NCBI GenBank assembly: GCA_934183155.1 | Contig: CAKPSB010000006.1 | Span: 25,097-89,096 of the forward strand | Source: an uncultured Bacilli bacterium | GTDB taxonomy: Bacteria > Bacillota_I > Bacilli_A > RF39 > UBA660 | DNA length: 64,000 nucleotides | Direction of reading: 5' to 3' | Shown: piece after piece, positions 2,750-25,230 of the stretch | Layout: every line of letters starts with the position of its first letter | Position numbering within the stretch: the stretch's first letter is position 1 | Made by a program: the position numbers and the translations under genes | Notes under the pieces: model-generated | What the model was told of the DNA's origin: nothing | What the model saw: only the letters and a program-made list of their open reading frames with translations | Databases searched by the model: none

Positions 2750-3267
2750 TAATTTTTATAACTATCTAGCATTTCAATGCGCTTTTTGTGACGTTCTAGA
2801 TTGCTGAAGGGGGTGTTTAAAAATACATCGGTAATGTCTTTTGCTCTATATAATGGCATGCTGCCGCTTATAGCAATTATATTAGCATCATTGTCTTTTC
2901 TTGTATATTTTGTTTCTTTAATATTATCAACTTTGGCACATCTTACTTTATCAATTTTGTTGCAAGCGATGCTTATGCCAATGCCACTTCCACAAATTGC
3001 TATGGCTTTTTCGACATTTCCATCTCTAACTGCTTTTCCCAATTTAAATCCATATTCAGGATAATCATGACTATTTTCATCATCGCATCCGTAGTCAATA
3101 ACAGTATAACCTTTCTTGTTTAAATATTTTGTAAGTTTTTGTTTTAATTTATAGCCTCGGTGATCACTAGCAAGACCTATTTTTTTTGTCGGAATATTTA
3201 TATCAAGCATTGTTTTTTCTTGATAATTGTTTTTTACTATTTCTTTTAATGATGTTTCTTTTTCCAT
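2749..3267 (-). CDS. rpiB: Ribose-5-phosphate isomerase B
   Basis: RpiB/LacAB signature KIGLASDHRGYKLK...AIAICGSGIGISIACNK. Start re-set to ATG at 3267 (MEKETS...) preceded by AGGAGG. The ORF-track 225-aa version runs through the tRNA-Trp gene. Confidence 0.85.
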   Translation of the reverse strand: MEKETSLKEIVKNNYQEKTMLDINIPTKKIGLASDHRGYKLKQKLTKYLNKKGYTVIDYGCDDENSHDYPEYGFKLGKAVRDGNVEKAIAICGSGIGISIACNKIDKVRCAKVDNIKETKYTRKDNDANIIAISGSMPLYRAKDITDVFLNTPFSNLERHKKRIEMLDSYKN

Positions 3268-21591: not shown

Positions 21592-21743
21592 GTTTTACCT
21601 CCTTTTGGAATATATTGTAGCATTTTTTTTATTATATATAAAGATATATTAATATTTTGAAATGTGTTTTAATAAAATATTTTGTGTAAATTTGACTTTT
21701 AATAAAATAGTGCTATAATATGTTCTCGCAAAGGGGGAAATGT

Positions 21744-22010
21744 ATGAAAAAATTAGTATATAAGCCTGGTGAACACAAGGTAATAGGTCTTGTAATGGCT
21801 AACACTGTAGAGAACGGAGAGGTGTTTGTTGCTAAAGTAGCACCTCATGATGGCTATAAATTTGTTAAAAAGATTTGTGATTTGGGTTTAAAAAGCAATA
21901 ACAAAAGCTCACAGACAGTTTATGGCGAATATGTTAATGTAGTTCCTGTTATTACAAGTGACCCAGAATTTATGGGTAAACCACTTACTAAAATTCGCAA
22001 GGAATTATAG
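21744..22010 (+). CDS. Hypothetical small protein
   Basis: Start re-set to ATG 21744 (MKKLVYKPGE...) after GGGGG RBS. 88 aa, no recognised family. Lies at the left edge of the toxin island. Confidence 0.4.
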   Translation: MKKLVYKPGEHKVIGLVMANTVENGEVFVAKVAPHDGYKFVKKICDLGLKSNNKSSQTVYGEYVNVVPVITSDPEFMGKPLTKIRKEL

Positions 22011-22200: not shown

Positions 22201-22473
22201 ATGAGCAAAGCAGTTTTATCAAATGCAAACGAGAATGCAAATAAATTATATAGCGCTACTCAGAATTTATATAATGCAAGCAACCATTTAAACGAGGTTA
22301 TAAATGATTTAAATAATGGAGCTACAGCAAATAGAATTAAATTTACAGTAACTATTTTGAGTACTTTACGAGATGAAATAAACGAAGAGATACTTTTGTT
22401 GCGAAATACTGCTAACGATATTGTTAGCGTGGCAAATTCAATTGAAAATGAAAATAAAGCACGTTCAGATTAA
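22201..22473 (+). CDS. Small all-helical protein, candidate WXG100-like / LXG-associated (Lap-type) targeting factor
   Basis: ATG 22201 preceded by AAGGAG (7-nt spacer). 90 aa. Heptad-like Asn/Leu/Ile pattern predicts two long helices. No WXG motif. Positioned immediately upstream of the large toxin gene. Confidence 0.45.
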   Translation: MSKAVLSNANENANKLYSATQNLYNASNHLNEVINDLNNGATANRIKFTVTILSTLRDEINEEILLLRNTANDIVSVANSIENENKARSD

Positions 22474-22546: not shown

Positions 22547-24658
22547 ATGAGTTATTTTAAACCGAATAAAATTAGTAATGGTGTTCTTGGCTTGGATATT
22601 GTTTATAGCCAAATAGAAGATGCATATGAAAAAATAAATAGTTGTAATAACTGTTTAAATTATTTAATTAAAGAAAATTTGAACTATAGTATTTCAAATA
22701 TTGCTGATAAAGTTTCTAAAAATCTTAGGACTAGTAAAGAGATGCAGAATAAAATTATTGATGTTATCGATGATTATAATAAAACGATGAGGCTAACTAC
22801 CGAAAATAGTATTGATTTAAATAGTATTTTACAAATGCCAGAAGAGCTTTTCTCATTTTTAGAACATAGCTCTGGTTCAATGGTAAAAATGCTTCAAAAT
22901 AGCTGTGATGTTCTTTATGATGTTGCTAGCGATACTGGAGCTAAATTTGTAGGCGATGTCAAGAGTTGGTTTACTAATCTTTATGAAACAAATATAGTTT
23001 ATAGAGCGGCTGCGTCAACTGGGGCTTCTCTTATAAATACTGGAATATCTTTTTTAAGCGGAGCAGCAAAATTTGTTGAAGGACTATTTGATGGGGCTTT
23101 TCTTTCTTTAGCTACTTTGGCTGTACCTATTACAGGACTTATAGATATGTCTTGGAATTGTTTAACTGGGGAAAATTTGGGTTTAACTGATACGATGTTA
23201 GAAAGTACGCGAGGTGTGGTACAGTATAACGCGGTTCAGTCTTGGTGTGACTGGTTATACAACACAGATTTTGGTAAAACTATTAATGATTGCTCATTTC
23301 CTTCATTTAAAAGAGATGGAGCCATATACAACTTGACAAATCAGGCCGGCACATTAGTCACTCCAATTCTTTTGTCAGCAGTTTTAGCATATTTTGGCGT
23401 TGATCCATCTATATCTTTGCCTCTATTAGCAGGTATTTCCTCATTTGGAAATACAACAGAAAATTTTTGGCAGAATGGCACTGGAACTGTGGAGGGAATG
23501 GCAGCTGGATTTTTAGATGGTTTATATAACGCCTTTCAATGGGCTATAGGTGGAAAATTAGATGGGACAGGGGCGAAATCTATATTATTTTATACCGTTG
23601 GTGGTTTTATTGAGCCTTTATTCCAAAGCTCCTTATTTGGCTTTGCTACTGGTGATGATATATTGAAAGTTTATAATGATAGTGGTGGATTAATGACCTC
23701 ACTTCAAAGTGCATTTTTATCTGGAATTATCGCTGGATGGGGTGAGCATAGTTATAATACAAAAATAAACACACAAAGATTAGAAGAGATCAATACTAAA
23801 AAAATAGATCTTGATATTTTTAACAATAAAATATCAGAAATAAATATTGAAAGAAATATAGATTCAGATACTTTTTCAAGCTTTAATGATATTGTTAATT
23901 TTTATAAAGTACATGGTAAAGCGCCCGGTGCATACTCTGTTGATGAAATTAATAATTTTTTAAATAAATATTCCAAAGAGGGATTTGATACTTTTAATTT
24001 TCTTAATTGCAGTGTAAAAGCTGAGCAAAAAAGTGTTATACATGACATTGGAACCGACTTAACTTACGTTGGAACCGAAAAAGGCAAAATTGGAAATACC
24101 GAATTAACATTTAATGTTTTACAAGATTCTGATGGAATACGTTATCGCATTCAAAATAGTGATGTCAATAATCACTTCCGTTTAAATGAAATATATGATT
24201 CTGTTTCAAAAGTAAAAGACTTTAGTGAATCTGGGGATTTAATGAAAAACGTTAAACAAATCGATGTTGTTTCTGTAAAAAATCCAGATGATGAGTTTTG
24301 GGCACAATTTCATGGTGATGGAACATTTACTTCTGCAGCAACTTTCAATAATGGTTATGTAACTATATACAAATTATCTCCAACTATAGATCAAACAATT
24401 GCTCATGAAGCAGGTCATGGTATAGATAAAAATAATATTTTATCTGGTTCAGATTTATGGGCTAAAGCTGCTGAGTTAGATGGAAATTTTGCGAGTGAAT
24501 ATGCTCGTTCATACAGAAATGGGGCAGCAGAAAATGGAGAGAAAAATTTGTATATTGAGGATTTTGCAGATTCAATTAGAAATCTTTATTCTTTAGGCTT
24601 TGAAAGGTTTCGCCAAAAATATCCTAACAGGGCTAAATTGTTGGAATTATTATTTTAG
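22547..24658 (+). CDS. Polymorphic toxin, LXG/EsaD-like architecture, with C-terminal ATLF/M34-like zinc metallopeptidase domain
   Basis: About 703 aa from ATG 22547 (ORF-track start is GTG at 22529). N-terminal about 150 aa is helical. A Gly/Ala/Ser-rich hydrophobic central region (AAASTGASLINTGISFLSGAAKFVEGLFDGAFLSLATLAVPITG...GTGAKSILFYTVGGFIEPL) resembles the EsaD/YeeF mid-region. The C-terminus has HEAGH (nt 24404-24418), then ELDGNFASEYA and YIEDFADSIR about 35-45 aa later, like the HEFGH...EFFAEAF of the anthrax lethal factor family. Confidence 0.6.
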   Translation: MSYFKPNKISNGVLGLDIVYSQIEDAYEKINSCNNCLNYLIKENLNYSISNIADKVSKNLRTSKEMQNKIIDVIDDYNKTMRLTTENSIDLNSILQMPEELFSFLEHSSGSMVKMLQNSCDVLYDVASDTGAKFVGDVKSWFTNLYETNIVYRAAASTGASLINTGISFLSGAAKFVEGLFDGAFLSLATLAVPITGLIDMSWNCLTGENLGLTDTMLESTRGVVQYNAVQSWCDWLYNTDFGKTINDCSFPSFKRDGAIYNLTNQAGTLVTPILLSAVLAYFGVDPSISLPLLAGISSFGNTTENFWQNGTGTVEGMAAGFLDGLYNAFQWAIGGKLDGTGAKSILFYTVGGFIEPLFQSSLFGFATGDDILKVYNDSGGLMTSLQSAFLSGIIAGWGEHSYNTKINTQRLEEINTKKIDLDIFNNKISEINIERNIDSDTFSSFNDIVNFYKVHGKAPGAYSVDEINNFLNKYSKEGFDTFNFLNCSVKAEQKSVIHDIGTDLTYVGTEKGKIGNTELTFNVLQDSDGIRYRIQNSDVNNHFRLNEIYDSVSKVKDFSESGDLMKNVKQIDVVSVKNPDDEFWAQFHGDGTFTSAATFNNGYVTIYKLSPTIDQTIAHEAGHGIDKNNILSGSDLWAKAAELDGNFASEYARSYRNGAAENGEKNLYIEDFADSIRNLYSLGFERFRQKYPNRAKLLELLF

Positions 24659-24666
24659 AAAGGACG

Positions 24667-24876
24667 ATGTTTTTGAAAAGAATTGATGGACCTACACCAA
24701 ATGGTGGAACGTATGCTGAGGTATATTATTATGATGAGCATGATAAAGAAACTGATGATGTTAAAAAGGCTGTAAAAGCATATGGCCGTGAATATGATAA
24801 AAATGGCAAATTAATAAATGAAGTCTTTTTTACAAAAAACAATAATGATATTGAAGAAAAGGAGAAAATAAAATGA
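24667..24876 (+). CDS. Small acidic protein, candidate cognate immunity/inhibitor protein
   Basis: 69 aa, GGACG-type RBS. Starts 9 nt after the toxin stop. Its TGA stop overlaps the ATG of the next gene (ATGA coupling). Acidic (D/E-rich), no family recognised. Confidence 0.4.
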   Translation: MFLKRIDGPTPNGGTYAEVYYYDEHDKETDDVKKAVKAYGREYDKNGKLINEVFFTKNNNDIEEKEKIK

Positions 24877-25187
24877 GAGAAAAATATTTACCAATAGGAA
24901 CAGTTGTTACTTTAAAAGGAGCGACAAAAAAAATTATGGTTATAGGTTACTTACCAATGGTTGGTGACAAAAAGGAAGTTTATGATTATAGTGCTTGTAC
25001 TTTTCCAGAAGGAGTTTTGTCTTCAGATAAAACATTAGCTTTTAATCATAATCAAATTGAAAAAATTAACTTTGTTGGACTTGAAAATGAAGAAAGTAAA
25101 AAATTTGATGAAACTATTAAAAAGATGGTAAAAGGATTCCATGAACTTAAAGATGCAAAACTTCCTAATGATACAGAAATATTATAA
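24873..25187 (+). CDS. DUF4176-family protein (T7SSb/LXG-locus associated)
   Basis: 104 aa. LPIGTVVTLKG...KIMVIGY...YDYSACTFPEGV...FNHNQIEKINFVG matches the recalled DUF4176 consensus (LPIGSVV.LKG / YDYaGv.YPEG / FNH..I). Confidence 0.65.
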   Translation: MREKYLPIGTVVTLKGATKKIMVIGYLPMVGDKKEVYDYSACTFPEGVLSSDKTLAFNHNQIEKINFVGLENEESKKFDETIKKMVKGFHELKDAKLPNDTEIL

Positions 25188-25204: not shown

Positions 25205-25230
25205 AAAACAGATAATTTCTGTTTTTTTGT
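25205..25230 (+). terminator. Rho-independent terminator after the DUF4176 gene
   Basis: AACAGA-TAATT-TCTGTT hairpin followed by TTTTTTG. Confidence 0.5.

Follow-up and report, generated by a model that had tools for sequence, protein, structure and literature searches.

The stretch of DNA analyzed here (herein the window) comprises 64,000 nucleotides (nt) of low-G+C DNA (∼28% G+C) from an uncultured gut Bacilli bacterium (GenBank assembly GCA_934183155.1, contig CAKPSB010000006.1). A cassette of five plus-strand genes is bordered by minus-strand udg/tilS/ftsH and plus-strand mgtA/pth/mfd; in order, its genes are an 88-residue basic open reading frame (ORF), a gene for a 90-residue protein, a gene for a 703-residue toxin, a small ORF, and a gene for a 104-residue DUF4176 protein (Table 1). 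The position of the cassette between udg and mgtA is kept in eight related gut-metagenome contigs. In an initial annotation, the two small genes behind the toxin were proposed to form an immunity/inhibitor pair for a protease toxin. Here we analyze these two genes, the toxin that they accompany, and related loci; L numbers denote loci on genome and metagenome contigs that were compared with the window, and P numbers denote related proteins.

Table 1. Features of the toxin cassette, in window coordinates
Feature	Position	Strand	Remarks
Promoter-like site	21692..21719	+	TTGACT, 16 nt, TATAAT, with TG extension; precedes the first cassette gene
88-residue basic ORF (pI 9.4), first cassette gene	21744..22010	+	Conserved
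90-residue protein of coiled-coil-like composition, candidate Lap-like targeting partner	22201..22473	+	
703-residue modular toxin	22547..24658	+	N-terminal targeting region, residues ∼1 through 140; middle region, ∼141 through 425; linker; predicted zinc peptidase, ∼515 through 703
Most hydrophobic stretch of the toxin middle region, two segments	23087..23401	+	From a hydropathy scan; putatively shielded by the DUF4176 chaperone
C-terminal toxin domain, predicted anthrax-lethal-factor/Pro-Pro-endopeptidase-like zinc metallopeptidase	24089..24655	+	
Motifs of the tip	HEAGH 24404..24418; Tyr in YARSY 24500..24514; EDFAD 24557..24571; YPNR 24620..24631	+	
67-residue candidate cognate immunity protein/inhibitor of the peptidase domain	24673..24876	+	Alternative start at ATG 24667 gives 69 residues
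104-residue small DUF4176 protein (Ltc/Lcp-type toxin chaperone family)	24873..25187	+	ATGA-coupled to the candidate immunity gene
AT-rich hairpin AAAACAGA / UCUGUUUU with U run, possible cassette terminator	25205..25228	+	Weak evidence

The Small Gene behind the Toxin

The toxin ORF ends with TAG at 24656 through 24658, an ATG follows at 24667, and the small ORF stops with TGA at 24874 through 24876. As first described, this TGA overlaps the start of the DUF4176 gene: within the string AAAATGAGAG, the ATGA at 24873 through 24876 forms a 4-nt stop/start overlap between the small ORF and the 104-residue ORF. The product had been described as a 69-residue acidic protein. The ORF itself is real, but translation probably begins at TTG 24673, which gives 67 residues, and the protein is only mildly acidic (isoelectric point [pI] 5.4, net charge about −2.4). 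The TTG start is favored because the sequence AAAGGA (24659 through 24664) stands 8 nt ahead of it and only 2 nt ahead of ATG 24667, because the gene calls in related contigs and the named member of the National Center for Biotechnology Information (NCBI) cluster are 67 residues long, and because divergent homologs open with MKRIDG or MIRIDG, their ATG falling exactly at the position of TTG 24673. Exact copies of the small protein and of its DUF4176 neighbor are present in NCBI records of metagenome-assembled genomes (MAGs) as MDD6323690.1 (“hypothetical protein”, the 67-residue form) and MDD6323691.1 (“DUF4176 domain-containing protein”).

Homologs 34 to 69% identical to the small protein, amounting to ∼19 distinct variants on unrelated contigs, retain an open frame; the small ORF is therefore far more than a chance occurrence. 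In a word-indexed protein search, the matches to the full toxin were all near-identical to it and those to the small protein numbered two; distant relatives emerged when an exhaustive HMMER search was run with the toxin tip and when genome and metagenome contigs were scanned for patterns. The pattern scans yielded 2 genome loci and 38 metagenome loci with small-protein homologs at 37 to 57% identity, and further look-ups gave homologs at 52% and 69%. Across 15 distinct sequences the protein has an invariant core of T, P, G, G, Y, E ... A ... E ... G (TPxGGxYxE). It has neither a signal peptide nor a membrane segment, and its predicted structure consists of four β-strands and a disordered tail (predicted local distance difference test [pLDDT] score 69.7, from a three-sequence alignment).

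Scans of Pfam and NCBIfam with the small protein gave nothing above threshold, and no named immunity family (Imm1-74, SUKH, SuFu, DUF443, DUF600, DUF5085, and similar) was matched by the protein or by 14 of its homologs at E values up to 1. YwqK-type MORN-repeat proteins are immunity proteins of Bacillus LXG toxins. The small protein has the hairpin-repeat look of these proteins (GGxYxEvYYyD...NGkLInE) and weak matches to MORN_2 and DUF2963, yet on this evidence it is not counted as a member: the matches to MORN_2 (E = 0.13) and DUF2963 (E = 0.0019) lie far below cut-offs near 30 bits. A match between the small protein and the window ORF at 1626 through 2537 was rejected as noise; that ORF encodes SpoIID.

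In some strains the small protein has a 76-residue form (P0004, P0299, P0303, and P0304) ending in ...EKEKIKWEKNIYQ. In these strains the TGA at the overlap with the start of DUF4176 reads as Trp and the ORF extends nine codons into the DUF4176 gene, so that a longer overlap replaces the 4-nt coupling.

A Lethal-Factor-Like Zinc Peptidase Is Predicted at the Toxin C Terminus

The toxin starts at ATG 22547 rather than GTG 22529, in keeping with the 703-residue length of its homologs. Neither Pfam nor NCBIfam gave an above-threshold match for it. Its middle region (residues ∼141 through 425) is hydrophobic and rich in Gly, Ala, Ser, and Thr, with two membrane-like hydrophobic segments at residues 181 through 199 and 267 through 285 (Kyte-Doolittle scores of 1.65 and 1.82).

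The exhaustive HMMER search with the last 280 residues of the toxin recovered 169 representative clusters. Among 150 of these, the matching region lies mostly at or near the C terminus of proteins ranging from 146 to ∼2,400 residues, which is the signature of a tip in a polymorphic toxin; among the carriers are fusions with Phage_Mu_F and with phage minor-capsid domains and one fusion with WXG100. In alignments of 52 and 65 sequences, the H, E, and H of an HExxH motif, a Tyr, and the Glu of an E-D-F-A-[ED]-S helix are invariant, and P-N-R after this helix is nearly so. By analogy with family M34, the invariant residues would act as zinc ligands and catalytic residues, and the window toxin retains all of them (H, E, H, Y, and E).

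The tip falls outside Pfam: no match to ATLF was found at E values up to 1, and a few relatives match Peptidase_Mx1 or Peptidase_M90 weakly. A sequence search against the Protein Data Bank (PDB) gave no match either, and the assignment required fold comparison. The modeled tip adopts with confidence a fold like those of anthrax lethal factor and the Pro-Pro endopeptidases (PPEPs), with similarity to solved members at 13 to 14% sequence identity. The tip is thus modeled as an M34/lethal-factor-like gluzincin and predicted to be a zinc peptidase; together with the invariant HExxH, Tyr, and Glu, the modeled fold bears out the metalloprotease payload suggested in the initial annotation.

Comparison of the window with L001, L003, and L007 shows that the toxin diverges unevenly between strains. 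In L001 and L003, nucleotide identity drops to 68 to 83% across the middle region (window positions 22847 through 23900, residues ∼100 through 450); the first 100 residues of the toxin, the tip, the small gene, and the DUF4176 gene stay 91 to 100% identical, and the flanking genes 97 to 99%. This pattern suggests recombination or diversifying selection confined to the delivery/translocation part of the toxin.

The Small Protein Travels with the Peptidase Tip

Homologs of the small protein (37 to 69% identical) are encoded 8 to 15 nt downstream of proteins ending in HExxH...EDFA[ED]S...PNR, in carriers of the T7SS (type VII secretion system) type and of the MuF type. The closest nonidentical tip belongs to P0006, a 922-residue protein from another uncultured Bacilli MAG; its tip is 43% identical, its N terminus is unrelated to that of the window toxin, and its gene adjoins a WXG100 gene. 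Twelve nucleotides beyond the P0006 gene comes one for a 75-residue small-protein homolog, and a DUF4176 gene is absent. Loci L010 through L013 encode a toxin of 922 to 929 residues with a different N terminus, a WXG100 gene alongside, and both the tip and the small protein. In prophage toxins of the MuF type, tip and small protein occur together in L015, L017 through L025, L027 through L029, L040 through L043, L046, and L047, and capsid and scaffold-like genes lie downstream in the metagenome MuF loci. When the loci were searched with a tip profile, ∼12 of the ∼19 distinct small-protein variants had the tip domain directly upstream in at least one locus each.

Copies of the small protein also stand alone, with the peptidase tip absent or replaced (L014, L016, L026, and L030 through L038). 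L014 has the small protein among other small unannotated ORFs, and in the array of L009 a small-protein homolog is followed by a homolog of another candidate immunity family. In L030 through L038 the small protein lies 147 nt after a MuF toxin tipped by Ntox50 (E = 7e-28; in L030, for example, at 3104 through 3775 and 3923 through 4162). In sequence, the small-protein copy in these loci does not differ from that behind the peptidase-tipped MuF toxins of L017 through L028, and the combination of an Ntox50 tip with this identical copy points to replacement of the tip, with the old immunity gene left behind. The most divergent homologs (37% identity) are those of L050 and L051 (∼3992 through 4183), which sit between a 365-residue ORF and a 785-residue ORF; no toxin domain is nearby, and the N terminus of the 785-residue ORF has an HD-like motif, IFHDFAKV, reminiscent of Cas3.

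The pairwise identities of tip and small protein, taken over 18 distinct pairs, are also correlated (Mantel r = 0.94, reached by 0 of 5,000 permutations). Tracking of the tip across delivery domains and persistence as an orphan are together the pattern of a cognate immunity protein, and to this extent the proposal that the small ORF encodes an immunity protein or inhibitor gains support. Tight linkage to the peptidase domain would equally fit an obligate cofactor, and the small protein matches no known immunity family; it might then assist the peptidase domain, by helping it to fold, by activating it, or by being delivered with it as a subunit, rather than act as an immunity factor. We give this possibility little credence. 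Stand-alone copies without the peptidase tip, including those behind Ntox50, and the copy that shares an array with another candidate immunity gene are at odds with a cofactor; orphan copies and arrays are the behavior of polymorphic-toxin immunity genes (PMC3482391).

The DUF4176 Gene and the Delivery Part of the Toxin

The 104-residue protein matches Pfam DUF4176 (PF13780) over the full profile (positions 1 through 74 of 74; 94.2 bits against a cut-off of 25; E = 5e-27) and aligns with the solved small DUF4176 protein 9DCS chain A (residues 4 through 80; E = 1.9e-8). Its length is within the range of the small DUF4176 class (70 to 130 residues; PMC12478183), and AAAGGAG lies 8 nt upstream of its ATG. 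The earlier statement that DUF4176 is functionally uncharacterized is out of date: two 2025 papers establish these proteins as toxin-specific chaperones that are needed for toxin stability and export (PMC12478183 and PMC12482557). Gkragkopoulou et al. 2025 solved large and small members of the family (PMC12478183). The small member MQE10_09270 is necessary for TelD's stability and export, and LtcA and LtcB, which remain inside the cell, bind an amphipathic helix within the TelA and TelB middle domain, which is disordered, and fold that helix (PMC12478183). In Streptococcus suis, where Wu et al. 2025 described the order toxin-immunity-DUF4176, the cognate toxin is specifically stabilized (PMC12482557). 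The DUF4176 protein LcpE is reported, in a 2026 preprint, to reside in the pre-secretion complex of TelE (bioRxiv 10.64898/2026.03.12.711312).

The six nearest relatives of the window DUF4176 protein, 55 to 73% identical, are all encoded in EssC/WXG100 loci, that is, canonical loci for type VIIb secretion (T7SSb). These loci run in the order EssC (FtsK_SpoIIIE, FHA), an 83-residue gene, two WXG100 genes, a small helical gene, a large toxin, a gene of 219 to 237 residues, and DUF4176; a 4-nt overlap of DUF4176 with the preceding gene recurs in L053, L056, and L059. Residues 1 through 443 of the window toxin align with the toxins of L053 (E = 1e-32) and L054 (E = 1e-26), the toxins of L058 and L059 have both the N-terminal and the middle regions in common with it, and those of L056 and L060 have its middle region. 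The middle region is common to six of the six toxins and the N-terminal region to five. The C-terminal domains of these toxins are unrelated to the peptidase; among the loci compared, the window tip (residues 495 through 700) aligns only with the toxin of L013 (E = 2e-34). The gene between toxin and DUF4176 belongs in five of the six loci to the family of 219 to 237 residues, which is unrelated to the 67-residue protein, and L060 has yet another tip followed by a 77-residue gene. Counting the window, this DUF4176 subfamily accompanies the middle region in seven of seven loci and at least three combinations of tip and immunity gene.

A profile built from 120 DUF4176 proteins found DUF4176 in no other locus with the tip and the small protein. 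In these comparisons, then, DUF4176 co-varies with the N-terminal/middle part of the toxin and not with the tip; this answers the co-variation survey suggested with the initial annotation in favor of the former and against the toxin tip type. The proposed pairing of the two small proteins as a two-component immunity/inhibitor unit for the protease has some points in its favor: their genes are translationally coupled through ATGA and both lie directly after the toxin, and two-hybrid assays in S. suis detected contacts of DUF4176 proteins with the toxin domain as well as with the pre-toxin region (PMC12482557). The TelE pre-secretion assembly, moreover, holds a DUF4176 protein together with immunity proteins (bioRxiv 10.64898/2026.03.12.711312), and a ternary complex is plausible on the strength of these contacts. 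We nonetheless judge a joint immunity function highly improbable. DUF4176 is missing from all other peptidase/small-protein loci, the same subfamily accompanies at least two other combinations of tip and immunity gene, and published deletions of DUF4176 genes destabilize the toxin and do not sensitize the producer (PMC12478183 and PMC12482557). The half of the pair assigned to DUF4176 is therefore not upheld by its locus distribution, by its association with the middle region, or by the nature of its family, whose members are chaperones.

A family of 219 to 268 residues that has no name in Pfam occupies the place between a different tip and DUF4176 in L053 (7345 through 8004), L054 (7304 through 7999), L056 (7291 through 8004), L058 (2713 through 3519 and 6318 through 6986), and L059 (6294 through 7004). 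The tip that it accompanies ends in motifs resembling ...GACSYA... and ...SSWG..., and a stand-alone member (30 to 38% identity) follows the small-protein homolog in L009 (380 through 1069). This family probably provides immunity to that other tip.

Partner Gene and Secretion Context

The 90-residue protein encoded ahead of the toxin is 41% (E = 1e-20) and 34% (E = 6e-13) identical to the products of the 85- to 92-residue genes directly upstream of the L053 and L054 toxins, and it also matches the equivalent upstream genes of L058 and L059. Its ATG at 22201 is preceded, at 7 nt, by GAAAGGAG. Scans of Pfam and NCBIfam with this protein returned nothing above threshold, no Pfam Lap family was matched, and a profile search of the PDB returned coiled-coil noise and no solved Lap structure.

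The homologous N-terminal region of the toxin (residue 1 to ∼90 or beyond) is found downstream of essC/WXG100 in L053, L054, L058, and L059, with a helical partner gene upstream. Tips are swapped within this group: these N-terminal and middle regions recur with a different tip and a downstream gene of 219 to 237 residues, and the peptidase tip recurs on other N termini. By analogy with these loci the toxin may be called LXG-like by context; it is not a demonstrated member of the LXG family, and none of the 65 toxins with the same tip matches LXG. The label “LXG locus” given in the initial annotation is accordingly not established, since the toxin has no Pfam LXG match and the window no T7SS core gene.

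A Probable Division of Labor between the Two Accessory Genes

We consider it likely that the two accessory genes do different jobs, the 67-residue protein serving as the immunity protein of the peptidase tip and DUF4176 as the chaperone of the toxin, within a T7SSb (LXG-like) module. The 67-residue protein would most likely act in the cytoplasm as a small inhibitor that binds tightly; it would hold the peptidase inactive within the producing cell and give protection to sister cells. The DUF4176 protein, a small chaperone of the Ltc/Lcp type and probably a dimer, would bind hydrophobic or amphipathic helices of the toxin middle region; the chaperone would keep the toxin stable and export-competent until it is handed over to the T7SSb, itself staying in the cell. 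From the published chaperone work (PMC12478183) and the co-occurrence of the DUF4176 subfamily with the middle region, we infer that binding would center on the hydrophobic stretch listed in Table 1. The 90-residue coiled-coil-like protein would serve as a Lap-like targeting partner of the toxin, and the ATGA overlap, together with the chaperone gene's own AAAGGAG site, would tie chaperone synthesis to synthesis of the immunity protein.

Several observations weigh against this assignment. For the immunity protein, the ratio of nonsynonymous to synonymous substitution rates (dN/dS) is uninformative because close relatives differ by only one to three codons (0 synonymous and 1 to 3 nonsynonymous differences). 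Confidence in the modeled small protein is only moderate (pLDDT 69.7), and Foldseek found nothing with an E value below 3. The Mantel correlation between tip and small protein is expected for any two tightly linked genes, which share history, and is consistent with co-evolution without proving it. For the chaperone, DUF4176 is 97 to 100% identical among strains while the middle region drops to 68 to 83%, which is awkward for a highly specific fit unless the contact is a conserved island. The 2025 PNAS paper, in addition, speculates that small DUF4176 proteins bind membrane-inserting toxin domains and not middle domains. For secretion, neither EssC, WXG100, another T7SS core gene, a second Lap-like gene, nor a paralog of the cassette was found in the 64-kb window. 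The toxin gave no match to LXG (PF04740) in Pfam or NCBIfam at E values up to 1, and a profile of its N-terminal region recovered coiled-coil noise and no solved LXG structure from the PDB. Since both an LXG match and a core gene are lacking in the window, secretion by a T7SSb rests on the homologs in other genomes.

The missing core genes and LXG match also bring up a stranded or inactive satellite, which would have no working T7SSb; the toxin would then go unexported or leave by another route, and the small genes would be a self-protecting remnant. The cassette further has a single Lap-like gene where characterized modules have two (PMC12478183), and close relatives of the toxin, the small protein, and DUF4176 alike are annotated no further than “hypothetical” or “DUF4176 domain-containing”. 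We regard such a remnant as unlikely, however: all five ORFs are intact in four sequence variants spread over many contigs, every catalytic residue is retained, the ratio of nonsynonymous to synonymous polymorphism (pN/pS) of the toxin is about 0.45 to 0.5 and not about 1, and LXG modules commonly occur as satellites at a distance from the ess locus (PMC13492133).

A bolder version of the two-job assignment can be framed, and we put it forward as a tentative and rather doubtful extension. The TPxGGxYxE proteins might constitute a new class of M34-specific inhibitors, found with T7SS toxins from uncultured Bacilli of the gut and with MuF toxins of Clostridia prophages and acting through a pseudo-substrate loop, accompanied by a small DUF4176 subfamily that recognizes a conserved element of the hydrophobic translocation region that enzyme toxins carry. 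We speculate that their N-terminal loop, which is invariant and rich in proline (the window protein has G-P-T-P-N-G-G), fills the PPEP-like substrate cleft as a pseudo-substrate.

Comparison with Known Systems

Among the closest published arrangements is that of S. suis LXG1-CT3/Imm3/DUF4176-CT3 (PMC12482557), in which toxin, immunity gene, and small DUF4176 gene follow one another and small α-helical partner genes lie upstream. DUF4176-CT3 is needed for toxin stability, and DUF4176 groups in that species correlate with the region downstream of the LXG domain (PMC12482557). The S. suis toxin differs in having a Pfam-recognizable LXG domain and a pore-forming tip; the window toxin has no LXG match and a predicted soluble zinc peptidase. 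The immunity candidate of the window is also unrelated to that of S. suis, and its DUF4176 tracks the middle region over at least three tip types.

The TelD/TipD/MQE10_09270 module of Streptococcus intermedius (9DCS; PMC12478183) resembles the cassette in that a small DUF4176 gene adjoins the immunity gene, and the role proposed in both is shielding of hydrophobic or amphipathic toxin helices before export. TelD, however, is reported to depolarize membranes and TipD is a DUF443 membrane protein, whereas the window has a predicted enzyme tip and a soluble candidate of 67 residues. The large Ltc proteins LtcA and LtcB, unlike the window DUF4176, possess an additional N-lobe, and their genes lie upstream of the toxin gene.

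Toxins of MuF temperate phages carry the same peptidase domain and small protein in Phage_Mu_F fusions (L018, L041, and others), and 20% of putative MuF toxins were found to carry a metallopeptidase domain (Jamet et al. 2017, PMC5576092). They differ from the window toxin in delivery domain and prophage context and lack DUF4176, a Lap-like gene, and the hydrophobic middle region. The M34 members anthrax lethal factor, PPEP-2, and PPEP-3 are alike to the modeled tip in fold, but with identity of only 13 to 14% and no Pfam ATLF match. Lethal-factor-like peptidases have been described among polymorphic-toxin tips as “Tox-ALFMPTase” (Zhang et al. 2012, PMC3482391); those are partnered by Imm-SuFu and delivered by Photorhabdus virulence cassette (PVC) or type II secretion (T2SS) systems, whereas here the partner is a β-protein of ∼60 residues and the carriers are of the T7SS and MuF types.

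Other Features of the Cassette and Its Host

The promoter-like site ahead of the cassette is the best consensus match within 21500 through 25400 (11 of 12 positions); it is a pattern match only, and hits across the region are no more numerous in total than in shuffled sequences. The 88-residue ORF that follows has an AAGGGGG ribosome-binding site ahead of its ATG at 21744. In the related contigs covering it, this ORF keeps its position at 88 to 97% protein identity (pN 0.014 to 0.052). Neither Pfam nor NCBIfam matched its product, and no homolog was found among the T7SS loci L053 through L060. At the far end of the cassette, the fold of 25185 through 25240, which covers the AT-rich hairpin, has a free energy of −7.4 kcal/mol that is not significant (z = −1.26), and a terminator scan requiring G+C-rich stems called neither this hairpin nor any other terminator.

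Elsewhere, the window encodes CotJB and a CotJC-type manganese catalase (40981 through 42069) as well as SpoIID (1626 through 2537), and the organism thus appears to be spore-forming. Its nearest named relatives are MAGs of uncultured “Bacilli bacterium” or “Firmicutes bacterium CAG:822”.

Implications

The window cassette fits the published template for DUF4176 chaperones and leaves the known picture of T7SSb effector modules unchanged. What it adds for annotation is that the gene beside a toxin and the DUF4176 gene should not both be called “immunity”; the data pair one accessory gene with the toxic tip and the other with the part used for delivery. Three modest additions are made here. The first is an unnamed family of ∼57 to 75 residues, “hypothetical” in NCBI records, that is specifically tied to a lethal-factor/PPEP-like tip in both T7SS-type and MuF toxins. 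If its members are truly direct inhibitors, they would offer a natural protein inhibitor scaffold for M34-type peptidases. Also new are T7SS-locus toxins of uncultured gut Bacilli whose N-terminal region is missed by the Pfam LXG model. The small DUF4176 protein, finally, is linked here to the hydrophobic middle region of an enzyme toxin and not to a membrane-depolarizing domain, which is relevant to a question that the 2025 chaperone paper left open; if true, recognition of a conserved element would extend the chaperone model beyond the membrane-depolarizing toxins to which small DUF4176 proteins have been linked.

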